In this document: piece by piece, positions 1 through 18,019 of the stretch
Position numbering within the stretch: position 1 is the stretch's first letter
How the letters are laid out: the number at the start of each line of letters is the position of its first letter
Source: a virus
Length of the DNA stretch: 64,000 bases
IMG/VR virus record: IMGVR_UViG_3300008216_000009
Coordinates: 1 to 64,000 of that record
Reading direction: 5' to 3' (one strand)
Program-made: the position numbers and the translations under genes
Notes under the pieces: model-generated
Databases searched by the model: none
The model's input: only the letters and a program-made list of their open reading frames with translations
Told to the model about the DNA's origin: nothing

Positions 1-337
1 CCCTCTTATGTATACATAAGAGGGGTGGAGTTATAGTGCTAGTAAATCAGGGCTAAATTTGACAGTGAGCAGGATTGGTATAGTGCTAGTAAAGTCTTTA
101 TGAATGATATTCTGTGCAAATCTCTTGCTCCGTATATCATTCATAAAGACACCCTGGGTTTCGGCCTGGGTTACCATATCGTTAGAGCCACTAGAATGGC
201 CCCCGGCTGGGGATGAAGGTCCTGGACCCATGAGCAGGACCCTGAACCCGTAAGGGAAAGATGTAGATCCCGGGCGGCCAGGTACGGGAATAGGAAAAGC
301 CCCCTAAAGGGGGCTTTTCAAGTTTATGAATCAATTA

Positions 338-435
338 CGGAGCAGGGAACGGGATAATATTGTGAGTCCCTGGTGAGAGTTTCACAGTGCACACCGTCGC
401 ACCCTTTCGTATATACACCTCTACGCCCTGCTCCG
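338..435. ncRNA. Candidate structured RNA (long hairpin with central bubble)
   Basis: 10-bp closing stem CGGAGCAGGG/CCCTGCTCCG with an inner GGTG/CACC stem, lying between two terminator hairpins; no ORF. Confidence 0.4.
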
Positions 436-456
436 GGATAAACCCCCGTAGGGGGT

Positions 457-912
457 TTACTCTACTGTCACCTCTATGATCCGAGGCTTGGTAGCCACAT
501 CCTCTGGGAAGGTTATGGATAGGATTCCAAGTTCAAGTGTCGCCTTCGGGTCCTCGGAGACATCCGCCCCACCTGGGATAGATACGGCGTATTGCTGTTT
601 GACCACTTCCTTGTTCTCATCGACCTCGATACTGTATTCCTTGACCACTACTCCCAGGGTACGGCCCACGGGGTCAACCCTGACCTCTATGTCCTCTTTC
701 TTAGTCCCAGGGACTTCTAGAGACAGAGTGTATCCATCAGTGTCATGGAAGAAGCCGGGAGTGTCCAGCATGGAAGCCCACCTGGCATTGCCCAATCGGC
801 TTATGAATGACTGAGGAATATTCCTATAGTCATCAGAGAGGAAGGCATTGTAAATCTTTTGTCTCGATAGGTTCTTCACTTTGTTCACCTTAACTACTGC
901 GTTATATACCAA
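457..912 (-). CDS. Small heat-shock protein (Hsp20/alpha-crystallin domain)
   Basis: YTLSLEVPGTKKEDIEV...KATLELGILSITFP matches the Hsp20 signature; followed by hairpin 440-458. Confidence 0.85.
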   Translation of the reverse strand: MVYNAVVKVNKVKNLSRQKIYNAFLSDDYRNIPQSFISRLGNARWASMLDTPGFFHDTDGYTLSLEVPGTKKEDIEVRVDPVGRTLGVVVKEYSIEVDENKEVVKQQYAVSIPGGADVSEDPKATLELGILSITFPEDVATKPRIIEVTVE

Positions 913-928
913 TCTATTTTCTCCTTAG

Positions 929-1069
929 TTAGACTTTATTAGGTTTTACATTTACCCATGTCGTTTGGTTGTCCTTCGAGTTCTGTTTCAGAATGACAAA
1001 CAGGGTCGTCCATACGCCTGTACAAATCCCAAAGGTTCCAATAATCAATAGAACCTCGGCTATGCTCAT
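929..1069 (-). CDS. Small membrane protein
   Basis: ATG overlaps the upstream stop, GGAGG RBS, one hydrophobic helix. Confidence 0.6.
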   Translation of the reverse strand: MSIAEVLLIIGTFGICTGVWTTLFVILKQNSKDNQTTWVNVKPNKV

Positions 1070-1500
1070 ACTCCTGACCTCCCTTCTAAGCCCTCTGTCT
1101 GCTCCGTAGAGCCGTTTTTTTGTATCCAAGCACCCTTGGTATCCAAAACTACTATTGGAGCCGATTTAACGACCTTCTCTGTTTCGACCTCATAGAAGTG
1201 GTCGGCACGGTAAGGGTTGTACTTGACCTGTACGTCGCACGGAGTCTCGAATGTCGTGAGGCTTGGCAGTGGTGCTATAACGCCTCGGACGAATGCATGG
1301 ACATTTTTTCGCTTCTCCGTCAGGACTCGCTTCCTACCACCAGGCTGAACTACGAATGTGGCATCCTTCACCAGTACGTTGTCCGAGTGAGTTATCACTC
1401 GTCCAGTAGTCCTGCTCCGTATGCTCCATGTGTTCTTGTGGAGGTTCTTATATACGTCCACCCTCACAGCGGACATAGGCATGTCGGTAATATCATTCAT
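1066..1500 (-). CDS. Conserved phage hypothetical protein
   Basis: VYKNLH...WSIR...GRKRVL.EKRKNVHAFVRG motif typical of a widespread phage family; AGGAG RBS. Confidence 0.75.
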   Translation of the reverse strand: MNDITDMPMSAVRVDVYKNLHKNTWSIRSRTTGRVITHSDNVLVKDATFVVQPGGRKRVLTEKRKNVHAFVRGVIAPLPSLTTFETPCDVQVKYNPYRADHFYEVETEKVVKSAPIVVLDTKGAWIQKNGSTEQTEGLEGRSGV

Positions 1501-1603
1501 AAACCATTAACTCCTTTTTGAATCATAACCATAAGCATAAAAATAGGACTTACACTAACCGCTGTACTCAAACCCTTGCAAAGGACGGTTAGATGCCTAT
1601 TTT

Positions 1604-1792
1604 TTACGATGCCTTGGCTAGGCGTTTGATATCCGCCTTGTCCACCTTGCTTGTCCACAAGGCGACCCCTTTATGATCAACGAGGGATACCTCATACCAA
1701 CTATGCTGTTTAACACCGACTGCGATGTTGTACTGCTCGTTATCCTCAAATATCAATGTTGAATTCTTCTCTGCTGGTATCGTAATCTTCAA
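1604..1792 (-). CDS. Hypothetical protein
   Basis: TTG start after GAAGGAG RBS, downstream of promoter 1832-1860. Confidence 0.6.
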   Translation of the reverse strand: MKITIPAEKNSTLIFEDNEQYNIAVGVKQHSWYEVSLVDHKGVALWTSKVDKADIKRLAKAS

Positions 1793-2091
1793 GTCGTACT
1801 CCTTCTCTGTATCTCTATTTGAACTATCTACAGTATATAGGAAGACGACACACTTGTCAAGCACGTCTACACCGATACATGTGATACGAGCTAACTCAAG
1901 TTTACTGCTATGGATATTTCAAGTCAAGGATTTGTCTGGGTCCTGTCACCTGGGTCGAGGTCCCGGGGCGGACGTGGACCTCGAAGCTCACGTAAGGGAA
2001 AGATGTTGTGGGACCTGGGAGGGATCCCGGGCAATAAAAAACCCGGAACCATAAAGATTCCGGGTTTCATTGGACCTGGGCTAGGGGCTAG

Positions 2092-2289
2092 TTAATCGTC
2101 ATCTGCCGGGTCGTCATCACTTGAGATGTTGTCCAGGGTGATTCCATCATTTGAATGGACGCTAACCCTTCCGTCATCGCTAACTGGAGCAAGGTACTGT
2201 TGAATCAGTTCCTCTGCTACAGCATAGGACTCAGCCTCTATCTCAAGGTCTACTTGCATGGATACGTCTGCTCTGTACGTGTAAGCCAT
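2092..2289 (-). CDS. Small acidic hypothetical protein (EIEAES motif)
   Basis: Coupled ORF; resembles 19365-19598. Confidence 0.65.
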   Translation of the reverse strand: MAYTYRADVSMQVDLEIEAESYAVAEELIQQYLAPVSDDGRVSVHSNDGITLDNISSDDDPADDD

Positions 2290-2750
2290 TACTTTATCCT
2301 TTCGTTGAGTATGTCGATCTTGTCGCCGTGTGATTTGAGTAGGTAAGACTTCACGGTGTCGTCGTACTTTCGCTTCATTACGTGGTACTCACCGTCCTCA
2401 TAGACTTCGTCTGGAATACGAAAGAGTGTCTGAGTCTTGCATTTTCGCTTTAGGTCACGCTGCTCTTGGACATCGTCCACTAGCTCACCTATGTACGAAT
2501 CCAAGTCATGGTTAAGTTGTTTGTTTTCATACGACCAAGTGTGTGTTGCTGCTTCAGTTTCCATTTTCTGAAGTAAGTCCCTGTTCCAGCGACCATCCTT
2601 GTCTCGAACATCTACATCATTAGCACCACCATGACCATTGTTCTTGGCCTCTCCGACCTTTTTGCCATCAATGTAGACTGAGGCATTGAAGGCAATAGTC
2701 TCTTCGGATAGACCTGCGTAAATCTTGACGTTCTTTAGAGTGATGTCCAT
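2289..2750 (-). CDS. Conserved phage hypothetical protein
   Basis: SEET.AF.A.VYIDGK.VG.A.N.GHGG motif; translationally coupled. Confidence 0.75.
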   Translation of the reverse strand: MDITLKNVKIYAGLSEETIAFNASVYIDGKKVGEAKNNGHGGANDVDVRDKDGRWNRDLLQKMETEAATHTWSYENKQLNHDLDSYIGELVDDVQEQRDLKRKCKTQTLFRIPDEVYEDGEYHVMKRKYDDTVKSYLLKSHGDKIDILNERIK

Positions 2751-3169
2751 TATGCTGTCACCTTTTCCTTTTCTCGGCTCTTCTCGAACATCTCGGCAAT
2801 TTGGATATTGCGGTTGATGTTCTCTACAGTAAACTTGTAGCTTTTACCTGTTCGGGTGTTATCGGCACTGACAGGATACTTCCGCCTTCTCAGGTTAAAG
2901 CCAGTGACTTTGAACTCCTCTCCGTTGGAGTTGAATACATGGCCCACATTGAACTTTGCCCCTATGTACTCGGCATCCCTGTTAGCGACCTTCTCCGCCA
3001 TAGCAGGAACATCTACCTTGAACGAGAGGGTAGCGGTATGACCTGCGTACCTGCCAGTGGCATATGATGCCGTCAAGCCGTACTTGTTCAAGGTACGCTG
3101 GATCACTACTTCTAGTTCATCACTGAGTATCCTGCACTCTGCTTTACCTATACTTTTGATCTTAGCCAT
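2750..3169 (-). CDS. Hypothetical protein
   Basis: Coupled ORF with GAGGTG RBS. Confidence 0.7.
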   Translation of the reverse strand: MAKIKSIGKAECRILSDELEVVIQRTLNKYGLTASYATGRYAGHTATLSFKVDVPAMAEKVANRDAEYIGAKFNVGHVFNSNGEEFKVTGFNLRRRKYPVSADNTRTGKSYKFTVENINRNIQIAEMFEKSREKEKVTA

Positions 3170-3372
3170 TAGTTCACCTCACGGTTGTATTCTAATATGT
3201 CGTTGCGTAACTCTTGCATTGTTGGCATACCCTCTCCACCACCTGACCACGTTTCATTTATTAGGTCAGTTAGTTTGGTCAAGGCATCGGGATATTTATT
3301 GCCGTCACTAGCATGGTCAACTAACCACTTCTCGACTGCGACCTCAGATACTTGAATTGCGATTGTACTCAT
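3169..3372 (-). CDS. Hypothetical protein
   Basis: Coupled ORF with GAGGTG RBS. Confidence 0.65.
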   Translation of the reverse strand: MSTIAIQVSEVAVEKWLVDHASDGNKYPDALTKLTDLINETWSGGGEGMPTMQELRNDILEYNREVN

Positions 3373-3476
3373 TTAGTTCACCTCTTCCTCGCATGAGGGA
3401 CACGGACTATCAGTGGTATCTAAAAAATACTCCCCATGATCTTCGCATTCTCCGATTCCTATTCCTTTATTAGCCA

Positions 3477-3692
3477 TTAGTTCACCTCTATCTTGGACGG
3501 CTCTAGAATCTCCACAGGGAAGTTAAAGAGTTCATCCTTTAGGTACTGCATATCTGCTATGTCGCCACTCTCTCTGTGGACACCTTCCACCTTGCTCAAC
3601 TCTTTGATGCCGTAGTGCAAGGCACGGGCCATCATCAGCTTCCCTCGTGTACTCGATAAGAACCTTACAGCGTCTTCGGTTTCAATTGCCAT
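3477..3692 (-). CDS. Hypothetical protein
   Basis: ATG after AGGAG, downstream of promoter 3718-3746. Confidence 0.65.
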   Translation of the reverse strand: MAIETEDAVRFLSSTRGKLMMARALHYGIKELSKVEGVHRESGDIADMQYLKDELFNFPVEILEPSKIEVN

Positions 3693-3735
3693 AACCACTC
3701 CTTTTCTATTTGTTAGTATTATACCACCAGTTAGA

Positions 3736-3945
3736 TTATTTGACAAGCACATTAGTTGGATAGGCTTCTACTTCATCTGCATCAAGGTCATATGGTCTTA
3801 CTTCACAAACCTCGCAAATGTTTGAGTCATAAGCATTAGCCCTGCGCCCATAATTTAGGTCATTAGCAATCAGGTAGGTGCAGACTACGCACTCCCTCAC
3901 TTCGTATTGTTCCCTTACCGCATCAGTTACCATTTGTATCCACAT
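3736..3945 (-). CDS. Small CxxC-pair protein
   Basis: Two CxxC motifs; coupled ORF. Confidence 0.55.
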   Translation of the reverse strand: MWIQMVTDAVREQYEVRECVVCTYLIANDLNYGRRANAYDSNICEVCEVRPYDLDADEVEAYPTNVLVK

Positions 3946-4193
3946 TAGGCTCCCCTTGCTTTTTTCTGCTCTGGAGTCTCACGCTCTTTGCATGATTTCA
4001 AGTCCTCGCAGAACGCTATCAGCATCCCTATGTCAGTAGGCTCCAAGTCAAAAACTCGCTTGTAGGCTCTGTCCCCCAACATACCGCTTGCTCGTGCTGC
4101 CAGCATGGCGAATCGTACATCGGGATGTATTGGGATGGAAATCTTCTCTCCGGTGTCCAACCTCTCTTGTAGCGTCTTTGTGTCTGTACTCAT
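3945..4193 (-). CDS. Hypothetical protein
   Basis: ATG after AAGGAG, downstream of promoter 4222-4250. Confidence 0.65.
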   Translation of the reverse strand: MSTDTKTLQERLDTGEKISIPIHPDVRFAMLAARASGMLGDRAYKRVFDLEPTDIGMLIAFCEDLKSCKERETPEQKKARGA

Positions 4194-4416
4194 TGACTCT
4201 CCTTCTCTATTTGATATCTTAATTATATATGATAACACGCAACGTGTCAAGCACCACCCTGGATTTTCCTGGATCCGGTCCGCACTCGCAGCAGTGGACC
4301 AGGTCCCCCGGGGAGACGTAAGGGAAAGATGTCCGGGCTACCCAGGTCCGCACGAGACAAAAAAAATCCCCCGGAAACTCCCAGGGGATTTTACTTGAAT
4401 AGAATTGATGTTTACA

Positions 4417-5211
4417 TCAATCTATCTTGCGTTCGATGGCAGCGTTGGCTTTTCGATGTGCTCCATGAGTAGACAAACCTATAACCATGTTACGTTCCTT
4501 GAGTAGATTCAAGTCGGCGCATTTCATGCACATCGCACACGTTACAGCTTTATTGAAGTTGTTAGGGCATGGCAGCACTTTGACAGAATCACGATCATGA
4601 ACCTTGCGAGACATATGCTTTTCATACGTCCACTCGCATGCATAGCCTAGTGCCCTAGCACGAGCTATTTGTTCGGCGGATTCGCAACTTGCCAGAACAT
4701 TAGCACCATTCCAAGCTGATTCTGGTACTGGAATAGGCTCGTTCCAAGCATGAGTATAAGTATAAGCTTGAGAACCATTAGGTGAACGAGATTCATAACG
4801 ATTCATAGCGTCGCCTATGATACCAGCAGCAATGCTATTACTAGCATCTCCAACTACATGTACTCGCAGTTTGCGATCAGCGGGCAATTCGTCAATTTTG
4901 CGAGCTTCGATCTCAGCGAATTGAATCTGGATGTGCATCCGAGTTTCGATGTCGTCCACATCTCCGAATATCTCAGGGTAGAACGGGCACGACGTAGGAC
5001 ACGTTAGTTGTGGTGCATAGGTGGCGTTCATCACGCCGACCTTGCCATTGGCAGAATCGATTACAGTCGTTACGGCAGTCTCATCGACTTCGACAAGTGC
5101 CCGCTGATTGATGCGATTCGTGGTGTGTTGAACCATGCCAAAATTGGTATAGCATCCGTTGTTAGTCAACACCTGACCAATCCAGTTGGTAGCCTTTTCT
5201 TTAGTAGTCAA
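4417..5211 (-). CDS. Cys-rich phage protein, GP88-like putative metal/Fe-S binder
   Basis: S.NGK.G..ATY..TCP.SCP, RVHVVGD, YTYTH, CP...TCxxCxxC and THG motifs; sole gene of its module. Confidence 0.6.
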   Translation of the reverse strand: MTTKEKATNWIGQVLTNNGCYTNFGMVQHTTNRINQRALVEVDETAVTTVIDSANGKVGVMNATYAPQLTCPTSCPFYPEIFGDVDDIETRMHIQIQFAEIEARKIDELPADRKLRVHVVGDASNSIAAGIIGDAMNRYESRSPNGSQAYTYTHAWNEPIPVPESAWNGANVLASCESAEQIARARALGYACEWTYEKHMSRKVHDRDSVKVLPCPNNFNKAVTCAMCMKCADLNLLKERNMVIGLSTHGAHRKANAAIERKID

Positions 5212-5391
5212 TTGAAATCCCCCTACTGATTTAATCTACCCTGTAAGTATACACTAAAATACGCAACCTGTCAAGCACAAGTTTGGCCTGGATATTATTT
5301 TACTCTGGGGAGGGGGTAAGGGAAAGATATAGAAGCGGCCCAGGATCCACAAGACAAAAAAATCCCCGGTCCATAAAGAACCGGGGAGTTT

Positions 5392-5474
5392 GGCTTCATG
5401 ACTTACAACGTCTTATGGTGTACGTCACATAGAGTAGGTGATGTGTTGGCTACTCACGGCATTTGCATGAAGCC
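5392..5474 (-). ncRNA. Candidate three-way-junction RNA in module trailer
   Basis: Perfect 9-bp stem GGCTTCATG/CATGAAGCC enclosing GAGTAG/CTACTC and GACGT/ACGTT hairpins. Confidence 0.4.
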
Positions 5475-5478
5475 TCGT

Positions 5479-5676
5479 TCATAGACCAATCCCAGGGTAG
5501 TTCATGTTACCCTTTTTGACCTCGGCCCGTTCTGTTTTAACAGCTTCGTAATAGTTCGGGTTTGTTCGTTCCTCATCATCACACTTTGGGCATATCAAGT
5601 CAGTGTTGAAGAAACTCATTGTGTGGACATAAGATGCTATTCCGCACTTGTGGCAGTTACCGTTCCAATCACGCAT
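5479..5676 (-). CDS. Small zinc-finger protein
   Basis: CxxC...MSFFNTDLICxxC. Confidence 0.7.
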   Translation of the reverse strand: MRDWNGNCHKCGIASYVHTMSFFNTDLICPKCDDEERTNPNYYEAVKTERAEVKKGNMNYPGIGL

Positions 5677-5929
5677 TAGTTATGGACTCCCTTGCTTGTT
5701 CTAGATTTAGTGTACATAGCCACGCATCTCCCATAGCTTGACGTTGTTCATCATCACTTAGTTTGCTGAACACTTCGTGGAGATGGCGTTTGGCATGATT
5801 GATTTCATCATTGGCCCTTGAGCTATCTCCGAGGGAGATAAGCTCTTGTGCGTCCGATAGAGTCGTGAACGCTTGCCAGAGTTCCCCTGCCATTGTTTGG
5901 TCGATTGCGGTCATGCCTGGAATCTCCAT
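5669..5929 (-). CDS. Hypothetical protein
   Basis: Coupled ORF with RBS. Confidence 0.65.
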   Translation of the reverse strand: MEIPGMTAIDQTMAGELWQAFTTLSDAQELISLGDSSRANDEINHAKRHLHEVFSKLSDDEQRQAMGDAWLCTLNLEQARESITNA

Positions 5930-6168
5930 TAGTTGCTCTCCCTAGATATTGTTGGTGGTGTAACGCTATGATTTGTTGTTGACAAGAACATGGCTAGACA
6001 TGCACTACACTGTTGGCCCCTATCGGTATTTATTAGGTTGGTAACCTCGTCCTCGGTGTCAGCTATGACATAGCCTATGCCCATTTCATCACCACAAGTG
6101 GCACACTCCATAACGTCATCGTCTTGATCCGACCTGTACTGCCAGATGCTGTAAGAAAATATGTTCAT
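5929..6168 (-). CDS. Small CxxC-pair protein
   Basis: ATG overlaps the upstream TGA; two CxxC motifs. Confidence 0.6.
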   Translation of the reverse strand: MNIFSYSIWQYRSDQDDDVMECATCGDEMGIGYVIADTEDEVTNLINTDRGQQCSACLAMFLSTTNHSVTPPTISRESN

Positions 6169-6389
6169 CAGTTGCTCCCGCATCCACAATCGCACTGGAT
6201 TCCAATAGAGGGTTCCTCTTTGGCAGTGCATAAGTGGTCATAAGCCATGTCGCCAGCAGTAACCATAAAGGCTACTTGTGCGTCCCAGCTATCGATTCCT
6301 TCATCGTAAGCAACTAGAGCACAATCGTCACAAATGTCGAGTTTCCTGTTCTTGTTGATCACGCAGTTGATTAGCCCTTGGGTGGTCAT
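6168..6389 (-). CDS. Small Cys-rich protein
   Basis: CxxC..HLC..CDCGC; downstream of promoter 6427-6455. Confidence 0.65.
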   Translation of the reverse strand: MTTQGLINCVINKNRKLDICDDCALVAYDEGIDSWDAQVAFMVTAGDMAYDHLCTAKEEPSIGIQCDCGCGSN

Positions 6390-6460
6390 CGTCCTTGCTC
6401 CCCCTTTTAATTTCCTAACTATTAGTATTATACCAAACTTAACGACAAGTGTCAAGCACC

Positions 6461-6610
6461 TCAAGCCGAAGTAGCTTGAGCACTTTTAATCACTCCAGCC
6501 TTTTCCAGTATGATACGTTGGAGTACCTTAGTTCCTACTCCACTCACTCGCATCCGCCTTCGGGCGTTCCGCTTGTTGTCTCGCCTGTCCCACTTATTGT
6601 TCTGGCCCAT
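6461..6610 (-). CDS. Small basic protein
   Basis: GGAGG RBS; promoter 6638-6666. Confidence 0.55.
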   Translation of the reverse strand: MGQNNKWDRRDNKRNARRRMRVSGVGTKVLQRIILEKAGVIKSAQATSA

Positions 6611-6913
6611 GTCGTTCCTCCAATTCGATATACTATAAGTATACAGGAAAACATGACATCTGTCAAGCACTTCGACCCGGCTCGACCCGGTTTATCTTAA
6701 ATGGATCCTGAAAGGACCACCTGGGAGGTAAGGGAAAGATGTCCTCCGGCGGAATGGACCTATTCCGGGCACAGAAAAGCCCCACCCAGGACGATGGCCC
6801 AGGTGGGGCGTTGGAGAGCCTTTTCAACTCTTGCTCAGGAGCCAGGAGGACTGACAGAGCAGTTTCATGTCACGGGAGTGACCAGCCCCCGACTCATGCT
6901 CAGGAGAGGGATA

Positions 6914-7607: not shown

Positions 7608-7830
7608 GTCGTCCTCCTTCTTTGGTTTACTCTCTAAGTATACTCCTATTCTTAACACCTGTCAAGCACATTCTGAGATGAATATCCTGGGTCTTGGACC
7701 CCGGTATTGCCCGGGAGGTAAGGAAAAGATGTCCCGGGTAAGAGATCCGGCTCCTGGGAACTGGGAATAAAAAAAGGGATGGGAAATCCCATCCCCCGTT
7801 CGGGGCACTTAAATTAAAATGGAGAGCGAG

Positions 7831-8756: not shown

Positions 8757-8976
8757 GTCTCCTCCTCTTATCAGTATACTAGTAGTATACCGTTAAGATA
8801 GGGGTATGTCAAGCACATATAGGGCCGTAAATGCTGGAACTGGTCCAGCGGGTGTGTAGTTTACGGGGATTGGTAAGGAAAAGATATAGCCGCCGGGGTC
8901 CTTTTCCGGGCAAAGAAAAACCCCGGAATCTTGATTTACCAGGATTCCGGGGCTTTATTTGTACCTAAGTTGCTCT

Positions 8977-10064: not shown

Positions 10065-10242
10065 GACAGTCTCCTATCCAAATCCTTTACAGATAGTATA
10101 CAGGAAAAACAGTATCGTGTCAAGCACATATTCCCGGTAAAGGACCCCCTGGGGACCCGGGAGGGGTAAGGAAAAGATGTGCCGGGACCCTGGAGGATCC
10201 CAGGCAAAGAAAAAGCCCGGTATTAACCGGGCCAGGTGTGTG

Positions 10243-10330
10243 TGGTGGGGAGTGCAGGATTCGCACCTGCGTATCTCAAACGAGAGCCAGTTTTACAGAC
10301 TGGTGCTTTTGTCTACTCAGCCAACTCCCC
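10243..10330 (-). tRNA. tRNA-Tyr (GTA)
   Basis: Acceptor GGGGAGT/ACTCCCC-A-CCA, anticodon arm CCAGT-CTGTAAA-ACTGG, long variable arm, T arm GCAGG-TGCGAAT-CCTGC. Confidence 0.92.
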
Positions 10331-10895: not shown

Positions 10896-10967
10896 CTAGT
10901 CCCCTCTCTTAGTTAGTCTACACCTCTAAGTATAAAGCATTAGCCTACATCTGTCAAGTAAATTCCG

Positions 10968-10997
10968 TAGCTAACGAAACCAATCTGAAAGCAATTT
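10968..10997. promoter_or_regulatory. 30-bp promoter-upstream element (other copies at 12412-12441 and 16559-16588)
   Basis: TAGCT(A/G)A..AAA(C/G)CAAT(C/A)T(G/C)AAAGCAATTT, starting about 10 bp upstream of the -35 box in three modules. Confidence 0.7.
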
Positions 10998-11247: not shown

Positions 11248-11264
11248 GTGGGGCTATCTGGGGC

Positions 11265-11507
11265 TTACATGGCCCCCAGCCCTTCGGGGCCGCAGCAGCC
11301 ACAGGCGGGAGCATCTTCGCACATCCCGTTGCCTTGGATGGCCCTGCCGTTGGCCCAACGGACTCCCCCGTCGAACTTGTCGTGGCAGTCCATCCCGTAG
11401 ACCCGCCCCCGTCCGTACCAGCGACCCTTAGAGCCGACAGGGAGCGATGCTCCACATTGGGTGTCGGCGCACTTGCCAGCGAACTTGAGAGTGATAGTTT
11501 TTGCCAT
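11265..11507 (-). CDS. Small Cys-rich phage protein (CEDAPxCGCC family)
   Basis: KFAGKC...CG...CEDAPACGCCG. Confidence 0.7.
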   Translation of the reverse strand: MAKTITLKFAGKCADTQCGASLPVGSKGRWYGRGRVYGMDCHDKFDGGVRWANGRAIQGNGMCEDAPACGCCGPEGLGAM

Positions 11508-11718
11508 GAGGTGTCCCCTTTTCAATTTTGGTATACTCACAGTATACACTATTATCAGACATCTGTCAAGTGCCTATTTGAAACGAAGGACCAGTCCGAG
11601 GCGGAGGACCTGGTACCCCGGGAGAGGTAAGGAAAAGATGTGGGATCTCTCCAGGACCAGCGGGCACAAAAAAAGCCCGGGATTTCCCGGGCATAAGTTT
11701 CTGACGGACCGGTCCAGA

Positions 11719-12063
11719 TCAGAATGGTTTAGGTGATACGTCTATCCTTCGATATGAATCTATTAGCTTCTGGACTTGTGTGATATCGGCTTCAGTCCAC
11801 TCACTTTCAGTCTCCATAAACTCTCGGAATTTAGGAGCATCTGGAAACTTCTGATCAACATATTGGATTCTATCTGCCAGATAGGCATCCCACTTGTCAT
11901 CGTCAAAGTCCTCGGCACTACGTTCTGTCATGGCTTCTATTGTATCGTTGCATGGCCCACACATATAACAGTCCATGTAGTCACGACCACACGGAATTCG
12001 ATTCACCCATCCATCGTATTGGGTATCGGCTCCGCATTCAAAACAAAGTGTTGTGTCAATCAT
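11719..12063 (-). CDS. CxxC-pair protein
   Basis: CFECG...VNRIP...YMCGPC. Confidence 0.65.
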   Translation of the reverse strand: MIDTTLCFECGADTQYDGWVNRIPCGRDYMDCYMCGPCNDTIEAMTERSAEDFDDDKWDAYLADRIQYVDQKFPDAPKFREFMETESEWTEADITQVQKLIDSYRRIDVSPKPF

Positions 12064-12064
12064 T

Positions 12065-12259
12065 TTAGTTAGTCCTTTCAGTTCTGATCTGATCCAGCCG
12101 TTCAGCCATATCCCGAACCAGTTTCCGACCCTCCTCCTTGCCTTGTTCGCCCTCACCGTTCTCGATGAGCATGATGGCGACCTTTGCCTGAAATGCCCAG
12201 TCTGGGGCGATATTGACGGTGGTGACTATGTTGCCACTCCCAGTGTAGATGTCGGTCAT
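12065..12259 (-). CDS. Hypothetical protein
   Basis: AGGAG RBS. Confidence 0.65.
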   Translation of the reverse strand: MTDIYTGSGNIVTTVNIAPDWAFQAKVAIMLIENGEGEQGKEEGRKLVRDMAERLDQIRTERTN

Positions 12260-12297
12260 CTTGTCTCCTTTTGCTTATGGGTTGATGGTTGATTTGC

Positions 12298-12367
12298 GTG
12301 GAGTCCGTGGTGTCCGTTTGTCCACTCCCCTCGGTCATGCGAGGTAGGGGTTCTTCCCTAACTCCAC
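12298..12367 (-). ncRNA. Four-way-junction RNA motif, copy 2 (starts at about +1 of the promoter)
   Basis: GUGGAGUU-AGGG[AAGAA]CCCC-UA-CCUCG[CAUGAC]CGAGG-GGA-GUGG[11 nt]CCAC-G-GACUCCAC. Confidence 0.75.
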
Positions 12368-12575
12368 CTTCTAAGGATACACTAAAACGTAACATCTGTC
12401 AAGTATTTCTATAGCTGAGAAAAGCAATATCAAAGCAATTTGGACGGTCCGGTCCAGGACCCCGTTCCCTGGACCCCCACGGCAGGAGGTATAGGTAAGG
12501 AAAAGATGTACCGGGGGTCCCGGCTTCGCCAGGGCAAAAAAATTCCCCTCTTAAAAGAGGGGATGTATTCTACAT

Positions 12576-13258
12576 GCCTCATATGTTTTTTAGGCTCCCA
12601 GAGGCATTCTGGGGCGGTCATGGCGATGGGTATCAGCCGTGCTGCTCTGCGAGGCGACCCCAGAGTTTGTCAGCCCGCCGAACAGATTTCTCAGCTTCGC
12701 TAACTAGCTCACGGTACTTACCTAGCTCTGCCTGCCACCGCCGTAGCTGCTGCTTCTCGAATCGGTACACATCGTAAGCAGCATCGACGACTGCGTCGGC
12801 GTGAGGGAAGTTCGCAGCGCAACCTTCGCACTCGTCCCCGTACCAACCGCCGTCAGTTGGGCAATTAGCCTCGCCGTATTCGTTGACAACGAGCTTCTCA
12901 CCGCAGCCGTAGGGGCAATCGAGAGTAGCTATGTTTACTTTCTCGTTAGTAGTTGTGACCATTTGGTTTTTTTCCTTCCCCAGAAGCCCGACGACTGAGT
13001 GACCCCTGTAAATTACGACTACCTATAGGATACACTAAAATAGGTGCTATGTCAAGTAGGTCGGAAAACTGAGACTCCAGATATTCCTGGCTTTGTATAG
13101 CCTGGGTAGTTCCCGGTGAGCCAGGTCGTAAGGAAAAGATGTACTGGGGTCCGGCTCCGCCGGGGCAAAGAAAAACCCCTCTTTTGAGGGGTAGTGGTAG
13201 TTTTATAGTATGCCTCATATGTTTTTTAGGCTCTCAGAGGCGTTCTGAGGCGGTTATG
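12576..13258 (+). repeat. About 47-bp trailer repeat shared by adjacent modules (12576-12622 and 13211-13258)
   Basis: TGCCTCATATGTTTTTTAGGCTC(C/T)CAGAGGC(A/G)TTCTG(G/A)GGCGGT(C/T)ATG. Confidence 0.85.
12633..12962 (-). CDS. Cys-rich hypothetical protein
   Basis: CPYGC, CP and CEGC motifs; sole gene of its module. Confidence 0.7.
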   Translation of the reverse strand: MVTTTNEKVNIATLDCPYGCGEKLVVNEYGEANCPTDGGWYGDECEGCAANFPHADAVVDAAYDVYRFEKQQLRRWQAELGKYRELVSEAEKSVRRADKLWGRLAEQHG

Positions 13259-13273
13259 CCACCCTACCCTACC

Positions 13274-13495
13274 TTAGGCTGGAGTGACGACGTGCCACAC
13301 CTTACCAGCGTAGGGACCGACATCCGCAACCTCTAATCCAGCGGCTGACCCGTCGGCTACTCCCATGGTGGACTCGCAAGCTGTGCAGATAGTCCATGAC
13401 GGGCTAACTACGATGGTTGCAGGGTTCTTGCACCCTTGTGCAGTCCACGCTTTGGAGTCATCTATGTGACTCATGTGCTCGCATTGGCAGTTCAT
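13274..13495 (-). CDS. Small Cys/His-rich protein
   Basis: CQCEH..H...C...CTAC; sole gene of its module. Confidence 0.7.
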   Translation of the reverse strand: MNCQCEHMSHIDDSKAWTAQGCKNPATIVVSPSWTICTACESTMGVADGSAAGLEVADVGPYAGKVWHVVTPA

Positions 13496-13811
13496 TTGGT
13501 TTTTGTCCTTTCCCAGAGGGCGAGAGAGTGCCTCTGTAATATCCGACTACCTATAGTATAAAGGAAAACACGCAATATGTCAAGTGTCTGCCTCGAATAC
13601 TCCTGGGAGGATCCTAGTCCTCCCGGGAAGGGTAAGGAAAAGATATGCCAGGTCCCCCAGGAGCCTCGAAGCTCCCAGCAAAAAAAATCCCGGTAAAATA
13701 CCGGGATTTCTTCAACAGTTAGGGCTGTCTATTTATTTAATTGTTTTGTTCCATGCCTTAGTTAGCTCACGTTTCAGTTCAGATACCTTGCATTTAATTA
13801 CGAATTGTCGC

Positions 13812-14072
13812 TTATGCATATGCTGCCTCTGGATTGAATATACTTTCCCATTTACCCATCATGTCACTCCAACGCCCTCGGACTGCATTCTCAGTGTCAT
13901 GGACTTCGTAGTCTACGAACCCTTGGTCATCCTCTAGGATGATGCCATAGAGGCCGTCAGTGATGATTAGGGCTGACCAGAATCCCTCTACCTGACAGGA
14001 GCCATACTCTTCCTCTGCAAAGCCGTTCATTGCTACGTCGTTTAGCTTTTCCGAAATTGCGTCGTACTTCAT
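13812..14072 (-). CDS. Hypothetical protein
   Basis: ATGA overlap with the upstream gene. Confidence 0.65.
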   Translation of the reverse strand: MKYDAISEKLNDVAMNGFAEEEYGSCQVEGFWSALIITDGLYGIILEDDQGFVDYEVHDTENAVRGRWSDMMGKWESIFNPEAAYA

Positions 14073-14287
14073 TCTAGTTCCCTTTCGTTGCTGAGTTCTC
14101 CACACACACATTCTGTGATTCTAGGGATGAATTTCAAGCTACATTCGCATATGTTCAACTTGGTGTCTTCTACGAAAGACTTACACTCAGGACACTGGAA
14201 TAGCCTACGGTCTTCGCATTCCGTGTAGTGCTTCTCGTCCACCCAAGGTGGGTCTACTGGTAGGTCAACTACGATGTCTTGGTTCAT
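14069..14287 (-). CDS. Small Cys-rich protein
   Basis: AGGAG RBS; CPEC, CEC and CVC motifs. Confidence 0.6.
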   Translation of the reverse strand: MNQDIVVDLPVDPPWVDEKHYTECEDRRLFQCPECKSFVEDTKLNICECSLKFIPRITECVCGELSNERELE

Positions 14288-14462
14288 TTTTATGCTCCTA
14301 TGTAATCGCTGGCTGAGCAATCCCAGCATATGGTCAGAGTCTCGTCTAGGTTCGTCCCCGTACATTCTGGGCATTCTCGATTGGCCCGCATTAGTTGTTT
14401 CTTGAGTTTAGCTACTAACTTCATTGTGTCGTTTACTAGGCTATTTCTTTGTATGTTATTCA

Positions 14463-14612
14463 TCAGTTTCTCACCTTACTTGTTTTGATCTTGATGTCCT
14501 TGATAGCATCTTGATCACGGATGACATCGTTGATGTCGATGTCGCTCTCACTGACCTTGCCATCGTACTCCATCTCGTAGATTACCGTGACCTTGACCTT
14601 TGTGTTTTCCAT
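14463..14612 (-). CDS. 49-aa protein, paralog of 16302-16487 (not in ORF track)
   Basis: MENTKVKVTVIYEMEYDGKVSESDIDINDVIRD...; GGGAGG RBS; promoter 14648-14676. Confidence 0.7.
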   Translation of the reverse strand: MENTKVKVTVIYEMEYDGKVSESDIDINDVIRDQDAIKDIKIKTSKVRN

Positions 14613-14826
14613 GGATTCGCCCTCCCTTGTGTTTGGTCTACCCTCTGATTATACTCTCATTCTTTACATGTGTCAAGTGTTTATTTGACCAATTTTACTT
14701 GGATTTGGACCCCGTCCCGGTTCCTGGTAGAGCTTAGAGGGTAAGGAAAAGATATGTCCCGGGCAGGAGGATTCCAGGGCAAAAAAAATCCCGGCTCGAA
14801 GCCGGGATAGGGGGGGATTACGAGGA

Positions 14827-15201
14827 TTACTCGTAGTGGGGCCGATAGGCGGGGTATTCTTCGCCAGGATGGTCTTCTACCCTGATTTCATAGCTACCAG
14901 ATGTTACCAACTCGCCTGGGAATTCTGTTGGGACATCCATCGTATCCAGATAGTTTACGCCGTTAGCGTCGTGTGTGTAGCTGTAGGCATATTCTGATTT
15001 GTTGGAATATTTGGCACTCAGAATAGATTCCCAGTGTCCCGCAGGACATAGGTCGCCGTGGACATACTCGGACTCAGACTCGACACAGGTGGTCGCCTTG
15101 CTCACAACTGGAGTACCACATGTGTAGTACCAGCCACCCTCCTCTGCACCGCCGTAGCGACGTTCGGTAGAATATACATTTACGAAAACTGTGTTGCTCA
15201 T
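14827..15201 (-). CDS. Conserved phage protein (YGGxEEGGWYY family)
   Basis: VNVY...RRYGGAEEGGWYY...RPHYE. Confidence 0.75.
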   Translation of the reverse strand: MSNTVFVNVYSTERRYGGAEEGGWYYTCGTPVVSKATTCVESESEYVHGDLCPAGHWESILSAKYSNKSEYAYSYTHDANGVNYLDTMDVPTEFPGELVTSGSYEIRVEDHPGEEYPAYRPHYE

Positions 15202-15254
15202 TTTATCTCCCTGTGTTTTGGTTCTGGGCAGTAGCTCGGATGTGACATTGGACT

Positions 15255-15333
15255 GGGTTGAGAGCCTCTAGGGTCTGATGGCTAGTCCCCTGAGTTATGT
15301 CAGGTAGGGGGCACTCCCCCGACTCCCCAGCCC
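15255..15333 (-). ncRNA. Four-way-junction RNA motif, copy 3 (module leader)
   Basis: GGAGUC-GGGGG[AGUG]CCCCC-UA-CCUGA[CAUAAC]UCAGG-GGA-CUAG[10 nt]CUAG-A-GGCUCU. Confidence 0.75.
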
Positions 15334-15516
15334 CATCCTCACTACATTAGTAGTATACCACGATTCCTTACATGTGTCAAGTCTTTTGGTCCCGGGTTTT
15401 TAACTTGAGTCCTGGGCCAGGAGGAACTTGCAGTAAATGCAATATGGGTGTAAGGGAAAGCTGTACTGGATCCTTTGAGTTTTTACCCGGGTAAAAAGCC
15501 TTACCAGGGTTCCTCT

Positions 15517-15783
15517 CTATTTTAGATACTCCCTCACAATGGCTTTTAGGTCTACCATTCCTCGCTTTGGCTCCCCTAAGATGAAGTCTAGGCACTTTTG
15601 GATATTCTGGAGGGACATGCTGCCGTGAGTGCAGAAACGCTTTATTCGTTCAATTCCTTCGACTACTGTTACGAATTGACCGATTGCCACGATTTCGTAA
15701 TTCCCTACTTGTAGACTATGATTCCAGTCTCCATCTCGGATTTCGTTCAGGCTTAGAGGATTTCCGTTCTTTGTGATTGCCAT
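15517..15783 (-). CDS. Hypothetical protein
   Basis: GAGGAG RBS. Confidence 0.65.
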   Translation of the reverse strand: MAITKNGNPLSLNEIRDGDWNHSLQVGNYEIVAIGQFVTVVEGIERIKRFCTHGSMSLQNIQKCLDFILGEPKRGMVDLKAIVREYLK

Positions 15784-16301
15784 AGTTTTTCTCCTCTTAG
15801 TTACTTTTCTTATCTACTCTCATTATCTATGACGACGCCCAGAAGTCGGCCAGTACCTACCCAGTATCCATCCAGATGTGAGGCAGGTTTGGCCCAGAGA
15901 TGGCCCAGTTCCTGGAGGTATAGTGCACGATGGGGTAAGGGAAAGCTGTGTTCCCTCCCAGGGACCGAAATCCGGGCACAAAAAAGCCCTGACCTCATAG
16001 CTTCGCCTTTTGTAGGCTCCACGGTTCGTCAGGGCTGACTCCGTTAGTACGGAGTTTCGGTAACTGCCCCTGCAGTGTATGTATATTTAATGGTAGTCAG
16101 ACTTTAACTTCGCATTTCAATACTCCTCAGTGCTGCTGTCGTCATTCTGATTTGTCCTTCCGTTTTCCCCATCCTGCCAGTTCCCGTTGTTTAGCTACTT
16201 CGGGATCTGAGGTAGCAAACCTGCGTATTCGTTCTGTTACTTCACGCTGCCTGATTTCCTCTTTGGCCTGTTCGATGGACATGTATGTAATTGTTGGCAC
16301 A

Positions 16302-16487
16302 TTAGCTCCTTACAGTCTTAAATTCTACGTCATGTATAGAGACGATATTGCGGGGGTCTCGAACAATATCATTGAAGTCCACGATGTCGCTGACGTTGTC
16401 CTTATCTATTTTCTCATCATAGACCAATTCGTACTCCACGACCACTTTGACTTTGGTTCCTGTCTGCTTCTTGAGTAGCCCTAGCAT
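16302..16487 (-). CDS. Small protein, paralog of 14463-14612
   Basis: TKVKVVVEYELVYDEKI...VDFNDIVRD. Confidence 0.7.
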   Translation of the reverse strand: MLGLLKKQTGTKVKVVVEYELVYDEKIDKDNVSDIVDFNDIVRDPRNIVSIHDVEFKTVRS

Positions 16488-16790
16488 TGCGTCACTCCTT
16501 CTTAATTGGTTCTACAGTCATTGTACACCTATTTCCTACATGTGTCAAGCATTGCCTATAGCTAAGAAAACCAATCTCAAAGCAATTTCCTACTCCCCCT
16601 ACCCGACCTGGGAGAACCCGTGAATCGGTCCCTCCGCCCGGGAGGGGTAAGGGAAAGCTGTGGTGGCCCAGGTGTTCGTGCCAGGGGCTGTTTTGGGGTT
16701 TGTCCGGGGCTATGCCACAAAAGTGGCACAAAAAAACCCCAGGCAGAAATGCCTGGGGCTTGTGCGGTGTTTGCTGTATTTTAAGTGTAC

Positions 16791-16967
16791 TTAGGCACTC
16801 CGTTTCCTCTTGTACTCTCGATACTCTGAATTGCTGAGTCCGTTGATGTACTCTCGATGTACCTTGAGTAGCAACTTAAAGTCGTGGAGTAGTTCCTCTC
16901 TTGGGTTCAATTCTCCATCGTTGAAATATCCCATTGCGTCGCCTAGTGTTAGTTCGTCTTCACGCAT
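16791..16967 (-). CDS. Hypothetical protein
   Basis: GGAG RBS, coupled. Confidence 0.55.
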   Translation of the reverse strand: MREDELTLGDAMGYFNDGELNPREELLHDFKLLLKVHREYINGLSNSEYREYKRKRSA

Positions 16968-17193
16968 TTCCGTTTCTCCGTTTCTGCCAGTAGGTGTCAA
17001 AGATTTCTCCCTGCTCTACCCGTCTGCCCAATGTTGTCTCAAGTTTAATCCATTCCCTGAGAATCTCATTCTCCCGCTTACGGGATTCTGATGGAGATGC
17101 TTCGCCGTCCATGTGTAGATTCTCTGGCTCCAATCGGATTACCAGATTGAAAAACTTACTGAATAGCTCGTTAGGTATGGTCGTCTTTATCAT
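16960..17193 (-). CDS. Conserved phage protein (LEPENLHMDGE motif)
   Basis: Motif recurrent in phage small proteins. Confidence 0.7.
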   Translation of the reverse strand: MIKTTIPNELFSKFFNLVIRLEPENLHMDGEASPSESRKRENEILREWIKLETTLGRRVEQGEIFDTYWQKRRNGNA

Positions 17194-17194
17194 T

Positions 17195-17380
17195 TTAGTT
17201 TCTCACCATCCGTTCAATTCCTTTAATCATCCGACTATGTTTTCTCATCCTAGCCGGAGAAACATGGTTCCAGTTGCAATCCCCACAGCATAATCCTTCT
17301 GCAACTGGAGATGCATCGTAGCCCCATGAACCCTTAACTGAGTGATTTGCTATGGGATTCTTGCAGATAACGCATTGCAT
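17195..17380 (-). CDS. Small zinc-finger protein
   Basis: CVIC...GYDASPV...CCGDCN..V.PAR. Confidence 0.7.
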   Translation of the reverse strand: MQCVICKNPIANHSVKGSWGYDASPVAEGLCCGDCNWNHVSPARMRKHSRMIKGIERMVRN

Positions 17381-17381
17381 G

Positions 17382-17666
17382 TCAGTCTCTCACCCTTCTC
17401 TCCCGCTGGCTCCACAGGCCCGTGTATACCTCTTTAATCATCTTTGCAGCCTCGTCCTGATTCGACCCGTAGACCACTACTCGCCCCAACTCATCGACAC
17501 TGAGCCTCTCAACGCCGTCTGCGGGGCATTCTAGGATGGTTACCCACTTGCCAGAGAGTGTGGCGGGATAGTTGTCGGCAGCGTCCAGTTCCGACTCTCC
17601 CATTGACCAGTAGCCCTCGTCAGACCTTATCACGAACAATTTCTCCGCTGTAGCCGATGTCTTCAA
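17382..17666 (-). CDS. Hypothetical protein
   Basis: TTG start after AAGGAG; promoter 17706-17734. Confidence 0.6.
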   Translation of the reverse strand: MKTSATAEKLFVIRSDEGYWSMGESELDAADNYPATLSGKWVTILECPADGVERLSVDELGRVVVYGSNQDEAAKMIKEVYTGLWSQRERRVRD

Positions 17667-18019
17667 AGCAGTCTCCTTCGCCGTCAGGGTTGTGTTACAT
17701 CTCTAATTGTACACTATAACAAGACACGTGTCAAGCACAATTCAAGGGCAATTTTACCTGTATTTGGAAATTGGTCAGTCTCCCCTGCCCGGATACCCCC
17801 GTGGACCCTGGGTGGCCCGGGGGCGGTAAGGGAAAGCTGTAGTGGCCCCTGGGCCTTCCCCGCTCCACCCTCGCTCCATCGTTTGTGGCAATGCCACACC
17901 TTTTTCGTAGCTGTTGCCCTGGGTACGCCCCACCTATGCCTCATCTGTGTCGGAGCTATATAAAGTTTTATATAAAAAAATCCCGGCCCCTTTTGGACTG
18001 GGATTCTCCCCTTTTATCC

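Follow-up and report, generated by a model that had tools for sequence, protein, structure and literature searches.

The early host-takeover regions of phages hold their fastest-evolving accessory and counter-defence genes, and the main model for the shuffling of such genes is that of the PeSLs (promoter-early stem-loop cassettes). In T4-type phages, these elements combine a stem-loop terminator with a strong sigma70-type early promoter; they are dense and co-oriented, border small genes of ORFan or accessory type within a hyperplastic stretch, and show conserved features in the stem-loop sequence itself (PMC2839356, PMC4122927). A second precedent is offered by the stoperators of cluster A mycobacteriophages, the sites of L5 gp71-type repressors. 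These are asymmetric sequences of 13–14 bp, about 20 or more per genome, which lie in short intergenic spaces with an orientation strictly tied to the direction of transcription, in phages that rely on the host RNA polymerase (PMC9283540). A sequence-only reading of the DNA considered here had likened it to both systems.

This DNA, a window of 64,000 nucleotides, is part of a virus record of 95,606 bp, all of which was searched and which is called G000 in the comparisons below. The virus is an uncultured deep-ocean phage of about 96 kb with an SU10-like capsid, unrelated to T4; its lineage is common in the deep ocean, the stretch being present in about 20 runs from 17 studies. The window contains an array of early genes in which, as had been proposed, largely self-contained modules are set apart by copies of a short box. 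The genes are small and mostly have no assigned function; among them are an L5 gp82-like gene, a dual-specificity phosphatase gene and DUF7227. The same-orientation copies first reported were recovered as 18 exact matches to GTAAGGRAAAGMTR, all on the + strand between positions 250 and 17839, where 0 are expected by chance. Read on the − (gene) strand, the box is CATCTTTCCCTTAC, 14–15 bp long and pyrimidine-rich in the mRNA sense, and the spacing from box to box is 485–2326 bp. The features of the array are as follows.

250–17839, − strand: early-gene array of 17 modules bounded by 18 boxes, transcribed leftward
250–263, − strand: box, last in the array, lacking a promoter within 160 nt; a variant contig diverges between 249 and 250
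1992–2005, − strand: box
4318–4331, − strand: box
5316–5329, − strand: box; the DUF7227 module from 5316 to 4331 is absent from contig L213
6728–6741, − strand: box
7718–7731, − strand: box
8873–8886, − strand: box after the phosphatase module
10166–10179, − strand: box after the tRNA-Tyr module; similarity is lost sharply at its promoter-side edge (between 10165 and 10166)
10243–10330, − strand: tRNA-Tyr inside one module; a homologue has a different module context in contig L219
11092–11105, − strand: box; promoter about 135 nt downstream
11627–11640, − strand: box; the two modules following it in G000 are absent from L213
12495–12508, − strand: box; a variant contig diverges 7 nt off, on the terminator side
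13128–13141, − strand: box; a variant contig diverges 7 nt off, on the terminator side
13632–13645, − strand: box
14741–14754, − strand: box
15450–15463, − strand: box, CAGC variant
15935–15948, − strand: box, CAGC variant, without a recognisable promoter downstream
16647–16660, − strand: box, CAGC variant, 57 nt after the T-run
17826–17839, − strand: box, CAGC variant, first in the array; no terminator adjoins it, and the closest hairpin/T-run lies about 130 nt upstream

The whole record holds 18 forward and 0 reverse copies, and no one-mismatch or degenerate copy was found in its 95.6 kb, which extends to the entire genome, and to a single orientation, an absence previously noted for the rest of the window. 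The boxes are indeed intergenic with respect to convincing genes; six are overlapped only by naive longest ORFs that cross both terminator and promoter. The comparison set comprised G000, its relative G001 (83% capsid identity) and nine deep-ocean metagenome contigs. G001 contributes 23 copies and the contigs a further 28, to give 69 in total, and the box runs with transcription in 18/18, 23/23 and 28/28 copies, respectively. The core CTTTYCCTTA is unvarying in all 69. The edges of the box are sharp, and the flanking spacers are unalignable, with near random identity; identity over 11 collinear junction pairs amounts to 97.6% in the box and to about 60–69% in the adjoining spacers. The claim that the box is conserved on its own is thus upheld, since it is kept across relatives while the spacers diverge. 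The spacers were rightly described as not alignable but are not featureless, being strongly enriched for CCNGG (z about 11) and GGWCC (z about 9) words. To judge from these comparisons, the box is a real, selected boundary signal, at which strains swap gene modules.

On the − strand, the order hairpin/T-run, box, TTGACA-N17-TATAMT and RBS is observed at about 15 of the 18 junctions. The layout proposed at the outset therefore largely stands, with extra exceptions at boxes 250, 11092, 17826 and 16647 beyond those first listed. The promoters are near-consensus sigma70 promoters, of which about 20 on the − strand of 1–18 kb score at least 10/12; in the late stretch scanned (44–64 kb) no more than two matches appeared, both weaker (10/12). 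A box follows each strong terminator called on the − strand of the array, the sole strong − strand terminator outside the array has none, and boxes are also present at both outer edges of the array. The hairpins at the junctions are unrelated in sequence. In G000, terminator and promoter are parted by the box and 40–145 nt of GC-rich spacer, without an AT-rich segment. The distance from T-run to box is narrowly held and characteristic of the lineage (medians 28, 27, 10 and 20 nt). The box lies 10–145 nt upstream of the promoters, with 0 copies overlapping one, and is therefore not a classical operator, a point that counts against the boundary role proposed below.

G000 and G001 have almost no array genes in common, and whole box-to-box modules have been gained, lost or reordered between relatives, so that the arrays are evidently hyperplastic. 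Contig L215 matches G000 at about 100% identity up to and including the final base of box 10166, and diverges beyond it; contigs from two runs show the same loss of similarity at the promoter-side edge of this box. Four of the 15 variant-contig breakpoints lie within 7 nt of a box (at 249/250, at 10165/10166 and two at 7 nt; P = 6e-4), and near the equally repeated promoters there is only one of 15, as against 4–5 near boxes. Single genes are exchanged too, with breakpoints at gene borders rather than boxes, and this accounts for much of the mosaicism. Accordingly, module-level variation among relatives was borne out, with similarity breaking at or near boxes more often than by chance; the idea of a cassette system with the box as its breakpoint holds for whole-module exchange and box-edge breaks, but does not cover the exchange of single genes.

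The explanation that we favour, at a probability of roughly 0.4, is that the box is a protein-read transcriptional boundary element in PeSL-like cassettes, crossovers there being a consequence. The box would be a sequence-specific, orientation-dependent recognition site and, in a PeSL-like array made up of autonomous cassettes of early genes, the third element of each terminator–box–promoter junction, its reader most likely being an asymmetrically binding phage or host protein. Neither dyad symmetry in the box nor a conserved fold around it was found, as would be expected of a reader that is monomeric or asymmetric, such as that of L5-type stoperators. The bound factor would act on the host RNA polymerase where two transcription units meet; as a polar insulator resembling stoperators, it would halt or deal with polymerases that have run past the intrinsic terminator, and it may contact polymerase at the next promoter from a fixed helix face, for example in a later shut-off of the strong sigma70 promoters. 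Dependence of the array on the host RNA polymerase is argued for by the genome content: no Sigma70_r2 match or sigma70-family protein was found in the genome and no phage RNA polymerase was detectable, the giant proteins being without the RNAP metal-binding motif and fibre-like in composition. Since the box is the only sequence common to all junctions and lies in a gap where a crossover spares both neighbours, recombination would resolve there, probably as homologous recombination by the phage's own RecA-type system (a RecA homologue is encoded), and the box would thereby also mark the points of module exchange.

Coupling between box and promoter is possible, in view of helical phasing with the −35 element in the relatives, though not in G000. 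The box-to-(−35) distances have a periodicity of about 10.5–11 bp (P about 0.001 raw, and 0.03 with related junctions collapsed), the strongest P-value being post hoc, with G000 excluded. With G001 taken by itself, P is 0.017. In G000 phasing is absent (P = 0.9), which speaks against a boundary role. A roadblock after an already good terminator also seems redundant, and a T-run-to-box distance of 10 nt in one lineage and 28 nt in another is hard to square with one fixed geometry relative to the terminating polymerase. The candidate box-binding proteins are weak as well; no L5-type repressor was recognised in the genome, and the candidate reader is the following.

25232–25624, − strand: small protein with a weak C-terminal HTH (below the Pfam cut-off), a candidate box reader only, conserved in G001

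Alternatively, the box may be primarily a recombination site, that is, a dedicated crossover or strand-specific nick site that moves promoter-carrying cassettes, transcription being irrelevant to its conservation. We consider this somewhat unlikely. The box might be cut or paired by a phage nuclease and the product resolved by phage RecA, in a way that is integron- or PeSL-like in concept; RecA and nucleases are encoded, including the following.

27914–28882, − strand: Endonuclease VII/HNH-like nuclease, a candidate only, without a link to the box; it is conserved in G001 (42%)

Polar one-strand nick motifs are known in T5 and phiKMV-type phages, and the box lies in an untranscribed gap, where a nick would not block polymerase. 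The turnover of whole modules, the excess of breakpoints at box edges rather than at promoters, the fence-post arrangement of 17 modules between 18 direct repeats and the lack of degenerate copies in G000 would all be consistent with such a site. However, no tyrosine or serine recombinase and no Phage_integrase-family protein was detectable in the whole genome, so that an absence first reported for the window holds genome-wide, and the box lacks dyad symmetry. Circular or 'go back' box-to-box joints were absent among the assembled contigs compared (contigs, not reads), and many exchanges took place at gene borders. Moreover, a site of this kind would leave the tight terminator spacing and the promoter phasing in relatives unexplained. 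Finally, old collinear junctions have kept the box intact, although little second-order selection for evolvability is to be expected there; this suggests a direct function at each junction, most simply a regulatory one, and not a recombination role alone. The original suggestion of a protein-binding or recombination site is narrowed accordingly, a recombination-only role being disfavoured.

It is quite improbable that the box is a promoter or start signal for phage-directed transcription, recognised by a divergent sigma-like factor, an appropriator or a novel polymerase, such that each module is re-expressed once the use of host sigma70 has been switched off. When a lytic phage carries a conserved intergenic word in one orientation, it is most often a phage-specific promoter, and the box stands before nearly every module, even the first one, which has no adjacent terminator. 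The late region has no sigma70 consensus promoters, so that some alternative mode of transcription must exist, and several large proteins are without annotation. Yet the genome offers neither a Sigma70_r2 match nor an RNAP signature in its fibre-like giant proteins, no box-like motif precedes any late or rightward operon, and downstream of the box no conserved −10-like element stands at a constant spacing. In addition, about 900 nt of non-coding DNA follow the last box (the counterpart of box 250 in contig L213).

An action of the box as RNA, in transcripts that read through the terminator, is very improbable. Such RNA might be cut at the box into module-sized mRNAs, or translation of the next module might be silenced by an anti-Shine-Dalgarno-like, pyrimidine-rich tract. 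In the mRNA sense the pyrimidine-rich box does lie just 3′ of each terminator, T7-type early regions have one conserved processing site per intergenic gap, and CAUCUUUUCCUUA, read directly, matches the 3′ end of E. coli 16S rRNA at 9/13 positions, a weak agreement. However, the box would be transcribed only upon terminator failure, there is no conserved structure and no pairing partner (0 reverse copies in the genome), and helical phasing with the promoter is a property of DNA. That the box is a functionless remnant of a recent tandem duplication of one junction is hardly credible and was rejected, since, although neighbouring boxes share variants (CAGC, T and C forms, in blocks of the same order in G000 and G001), the core is constant in 69 copies while the flanks are unalignable, and the pattern holds across genomes with almost entirely different array genes and spacers saturated with change.

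This lineage adds to its junctions a third element that is constrained far more than the surrounding DNA. At 14–15 bp, the box is compact and open to testing, and may be a recombination guide, a polar insulator or regulator of the host RNA polymerase, or both. Should a reader protein be found, the box could serve as a portable, orientation-dependent boundary part for sigma70 systems and as a marker for hyperplastic early arrays in metagenomic phages.

The analogy with PeSLs is apt as far as promoter/terminator cassettes are concerned. In both cases strong sigma70-consensus early promoters recur across a hyperplastic region, relatives vary in the flanked modules by indels and replacements whose ends lie in the cassettes (here plus gene-border breaks), and the phage's own homologous recombination is invoked rather than a dedicated recombinase. 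The analogy fails for the separate, strictly conserved and asymmetric word between terminator and promoter, for the hairpins, which here form no single conserved stem-loop/promoter composite, and for the gap, which is GC-rich with CCNGG/GGWCC words here and AT-rich in PeSLs. PeSLs are found in T4-type phages, to which the present SU10-like-capsid phage is unrelated. They also give circular excision products (mini-circles); among the assembled contigs (as opposed to reads) compared here, no 'go back' joints appear.

The comparison with stoperators holds for the form of the site, asymmetric, in many copies and oriented with transcription (69/69 here), but not for its distribution. Stoperators are spread genome-wide, whereas the box is confined to one 18-kb early array, sits downstream of intrinsic terminators and never overlaps a promoter, so that the operator class is missing. 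The site sequences are unrelated, and neither an integrase nor an L5-type repressor was recognised in this genome; the reader of stoperators is a monomeric two-domain immunity repressor of a temperate phage. In integrons, the attC sites are imperfect inverted repeats that the IntI tyrosine recombinase acts on as single strands folded into hairpins. Integrons likewise consist of co-oriented cassettes, each bounded by a recombination-associated repeat and highly variable in content between close relatives; in contrast, the box has no symmetry or conserved fold, no integrase is encoded, and the cassettes carry their own promoter and terminator. Phage-specific promoters differ in having a cognate RNA polymerase or sigma factor, none of which is recognisable here, and in preceding other operons, as the box does not.

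It is tempting, if unlikely to prove correct, to see in the box a polar boundary element of a class not described before, one that acts on bacterial RNA polymerase and is at the same time the exchange point of recombinase-free, promoter-carrying cassettes in a lytic marine phage. One asymmetric protein–DNA complex, with both its distance from the preceding intrinsic terminator and its helical face relative to the following promoter set, would then link the end of transcription in one unit to regulation of the unit that follows, through insulation, timed shut-off or polymerase hand-over. In Tus-Ter and the eukaryotic Pol I terminator of TTF-I/Reb1, a bound protein forms a polar roadblock beyond a T-rich release element. 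Neither the organisms nor the polymerases are related to those considered here, and the likeness is one of analogy only, but there, as would be the case here, an asymmetric site at a short fixed distance after a T-rich tract acts one way to end repeated transcription units.

The sequence-only reading had claimed 18 boxes in a single orientation, and this count is exact: GTAAGGRAAAGMTR is matched 18 times between 250 and 17839 of the window, always on the + strand, where chance would yield none. The full-genome scan proposed by the same reading returned 18 forward copies from the 95,606-bp virus record (G000), whose first 64 kb are the window, with no reverse copy and no copy bearing one mismatch. 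The boxes are arranged like fence posts, 18 around 17 modules, both outer edges of the array included. A typical junction, read on the - strand, consists of a G+C-rich hairpin with a T-run, a short spacer, the box (A)CATCTTTYCCTTAC, a longer spacer, TTGACA-N17-TATAMT and an RBS. An independent scan of the array's - strand recovered about 20 promoters with scores of 10/12 or better, and placed a box after every strong terminator call. The proposed order of terminator, box and promoter holds at these typical junctions; four boxes deviate from it:

Box 250: no promoter within 160 nt
Box 15935: no recognisable promoter
Box 11092: promoter about 135 nt away
Box 17826: first of the array, without adjacent terminator

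Strong sigma70-type promoters are few beyond the array, and the sole clear - strand terminator there (20021-19989) lacks a box. On that strand, within 19989-20100, strong hairpin/T-run terminators (20061-20036 and 20021-19989) lie 50-110 nt or less downstream of a good promoter (20100-20072), an arrangement that could represent an attenuator or a small RNA. Clear terminators and promoters of sigma70 consensus are nearly absent from the structural and replication regions (36000-64000, and 64-95 kb of G000). AATTGCYYT, a second motif, has eight occurrences in the window as compared with about 2.9 expected; it stands once between box and promoter at four junctions (10988-10996, 12432-12440, 16579-16587 and 17745-17753) and forms a cluster, with both direct and inverted copies, immediately upstream of the array (18029-18100). 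A further coordinate is 22249-22257, and the motif may act like an operator. The sequence AAGAAAAGGAAG recurs in the 5′ leaders of the rightward early operons (29646-29731, 31304-31373, 32494-32566, and also about 80100 in G000). In parallel (mirror) alignment its core AGAAAAGGAA complements that of the box, TCTTTTCCTT, possibly a chance effect of purine-rich ribosome-binding regions. Reading the box on the + strand as an RBS followed by ATG was rejected, because many copies have ATA, CTG, CTA or ATC where the start codon would be, and the ensuing ORFs are short and inconsistent. Chance box matches in other phages are exactly the reverse complements of such RBSs.

The box is also found in relatives of the virus. 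In G001, a related record of 141 kb with 83% identity in the capsid protein, NTAAGGAAAAGMTN occurs 23 times in one orientation, clustered within 55.8-72.0 kb, and terminator, box and promoter are laid out as in G000. Where the G001 array ends (55831-55903), a tandem pair of boxes separated by 59 nt encloses no gene. Nine deep-ocean metagenome contigs, reached via the array phosphatase gene, contributed 28 further co-oriented boxes. The core CTTTYCCTTA is invariant in 69/69 copies, the full consensus being (A)CATCTTTYCCTTAC, and no flanking column is conserved across the 69 save the T-run. Eleven junction pairs are collinear between genomes; identity across them is 97.6% in the box and about 60-69% in the adjoining spacers, the latter being roughly the level of unconstrained GC-rich sequence in such alignments. 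The box is therefore specific to this lineage and held, site by site, by strong purifying selection; a functionless remnant of recent duplication is ruled out. The box is absent from G002, a more distant relative (49% capsid identity), which was also too distant for phylogenetic profiling of a putative box-reader protein. The first scan of the whole collection was swamped by chance matches, and a stricter version found no array besides that of G001.

The terminator-to-promoter spacers in 250-17839 have a composition of their own (58-67% G+C), being made of CCNGG, GGWCC and CCCGGG words: CCNGG occurs 86 times versus 28 expected (z about 11) and GGWCC 36 versus 11 (z about 9), control words being without enrichment. 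Such word-rich spacers are few in G001 and recur in the boxless early array of G002 at about 64-72 kb (loci L234 and L233). There, on the + strand at about 64-74 kb, consensus sigma70 promoters of G002 form a dense array, accompanied by a repeat, AAAATTTAGAAAA, of which two copies sometimes flank a GC-word spacer. This repeat was rejected as an analogue of the box: it is AT-rich, mostly abuts the -35 and resembles an UP element. Beyond the position at which G000 ends on the left, contig L213 (10670-11474) continues after its last box with about 900 nt of AT-rich non-coding DNA containing the short repeats GTATACC and ATGGTTATG; another consensus promoter follows. The G000 record stops inside the equivalent region, where a genome terminus or a replication origin could lie.

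The distance from T-run to box is tight and lineage-specific, while that from box to -35 is broad (0-135 nt).

Median distances around the box
G000: T-run to box 28 nt (IQR 26-30); box to -35, 65 nt
G000-like contigs: T-run to box 27 nt (IQR 26.5-29); box to -35, 70 nt
G001: T-run to box 10 nt (IQR 10-27); box to -35, 39 nt
Other contigs: T-run to box 20 nt (IQR 16-25); box to -35, 34 nt

The box-to-(-35) distances cluster, unexpectedly, at about 10, 21, 32, 43, 54, 65, 76 and 87 nt, a periodicity of 10.5-11 bp (Rayleigh R 0.40; P about 0.001-0.002 against jittered controls, the period search included). After related junctions were collapsed, P was 0.03 (n = 50). The periodicity is present in G001 alone (P = 0.017) and in all non-G000 sequences (P = 0.0008, a post hoc split), and there is none in G000 alone (P = 0.9). 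Helical phasing of the box with the promoter is thus suggested but not established. The box lacks dyad symmetry. Its placement in the loop of a GC stem was discarded, as the fold is absent in G001 and the metagenome copies equal shuffled flanks.

The array genes are small and mostly without assigned function, the exceptions being L5 gp82-like, dual-specificity phosphatase and DUF7227 genes; one module carries a tRNA-Tyr, the sole RNA family above threshold in a search of 1-30 kb for known RNA families. The sequence-only reading had predicted that relatives would differ by gain, loss or reordering of modules. Protein-family maps of all array-bearing sequences bear this out, whole box-to-box modules being present, absent or reordered. 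Only four or five weak homologue pairs link G000 and G001 among about 80 array ORFs. Modules [F11], [F3-F4-tRNA] and [F19, DUF7227] of G000 (F-numbers denoting protein families) are missing from L213, and [F12-F13] from L221; the F6 module directly follows the phosphatase module in L219 and L222, and the modules of L216 are in a different order. Single genes (F3, F4, F5 and F7) also occupy different modules in different genomes, and the exchange unit is therefore sometimes the module and sometimes the gene. The DUF7227 gene at 4417-5211 (-) shares 82% amino-acid identity with L092:3333-4115, from an unrelated virus in which boxes, consensus promoters and terminators are all absent and which resembles G000 in the DUF7227 coding sequence only; the pattern indicates a recent horizontal transfer of this gene alone. 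The tRNA-Tyr is the last gene of its module in each case (10243-10330 (-), L215:624-790 and L219:818-984), and since its module context differs in L219, it travels with the cassettes.

The related prediction, that breakpoints fall at the box, stands in part: breaks are enriched at boxes, and others lie at gene borders or inside genes. Contig L215 is essentially identical to G000 through the tRNA-Tyr, terminator and spacer to the last base of box 10166, and then diverges, its downstream module being only about 71-82% identical; this is a recombination boundary at the promoter-side edge of that box. In L213, similarity to 12060-11626 stops at the box edge and a different module follows. Near-identical strain contigs from four other metagenome runs continue into unrelated sequence at 249|250 and 10165|10166, exact box edges, the latter in two runs. 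Two more of their breaks, on the terminator side of boxes 12495 and 13128, each lie 7 nt past the box. Breaks at gene borders or inside genes lie at 3756, 3792, 3943, 4130, 4601, 5672, 12051 and about 14026-14080. Among the 15 distinct break places listed, drawn from 24 of 58 loose ends listed, four are at most 7 nt from a box, versus 2.7% of the region (P = 6e-4), although breaks 12515 and 13148 may be one variant mapped twice; only 1 of the 15 is near a promoter. In the diverged contigs, junction flanks are at background identity, too different for fine crossover mapping. The many BLAST HSPs that end at box edges were not counted, the box merely being the last conserved block. Box-to-box 'go back' joints were seen in none of the assembled contigs, which cannot show rare forms.

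The G000 virus, a tailed phage, encodes a tape-measure protein and an SU10-like major capsid protein; further genes encode a family A DNA polymerase, DnaB-type helicase, DnaG-type primase, ribonucleotide reductase and its own RecA. Megablast against deposited phage genomes (INPHARED) gave no match, and the array was found in about 20 marine metagenome runs from 17 studies. The dCMP deaminase, as a search route to relatives, led to distant phages only. The genome collection contained no phosphatase relatives; it held one 2-kb capsid fragment, inside an Acidobacteriota MAG in which box matches occur only at chance level, and there is therefore no usable host call. Three giant unannotated proteins have no family or structure match:

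50263-57459: 2398 aa
57460-62031: 1523 aa
G000 74311-79791: 1826 aa

None has a DxDGD-type motif. G, S, T and N make up 31-49% of the residues along almost the entire length of these proteins, a fibre-like composition which suggests fibres or adhesins.

Our preferred explanation of the box, at a probability of about 0.4, is a protein-bound transcriptional boundary element. The sharp-edged conservation at each site, the strict polarity, the position in the gap between units and the set spacing from the terminator together argue for a putative sequence-specific factor that would recognise the box at each junction. This factor would most likely act on the host RNA polymerase, because no phage polymerase or sigma factor is detectable: G000 yielded no sigma70-family protein, and its proteins no RNA polymerase signature (the Pfam search for single-subunit polymerases, PF00940, gave no information, its control having matched nowhere). 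Crossovers at the box would be a consequence of the boundary role, since the box is the sole homology common to all junctions and lies where recombinants stay viable. The main rival reverses cause and effect and makes the box a dedicated crossover or nick site. The enrichment of breakpoints at boxes and not at promoters speaks for it, as does the lack of degenerate copies; it is nevertheless rather doubtful, as no tyrosine or serine recombinase was found in G000, the box is asymmetric, exchanges also occur at gene borders, and the box is conserved at old junctions and under geometric constraints. It is improbable that the box is itself the promoter of an unrecognised transcription system. Slightly more improbable still is a signal acting at the RNA level.

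We read the locus as an array of PeSL-like autonomous cassettes whose junctions bear an additional polar recognition site, by its layout a new combination. For the array, the closest analogue is the PeSL system of T4-type phages, in which composite motifs of a stem-loop and a sigma70 early promoter flank ORFans and mediate shuffling via homologous recombination, without a dedicated recombinase (PMC2839356, PMC4122927). PeSLs, however, have no separate conserved word, stem-loop and AT-rich parts forming one motif, whereas here the hairpins are unrelated to one another and the gap is GC-rich. For the site itself, the closest formal analogue is the stoperator of L5-type mycobacteriophages. Stoperators are asymmetric 13-bp sites that occur in more than 20 intergenic copies, their orientation following that of transcription, and a monomeric repressor with two domains binds them (PMC9283540). 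The box differs from that family in two defining features, namely the genome-wide spread of stoperators and the presence of operator copies within promoters.
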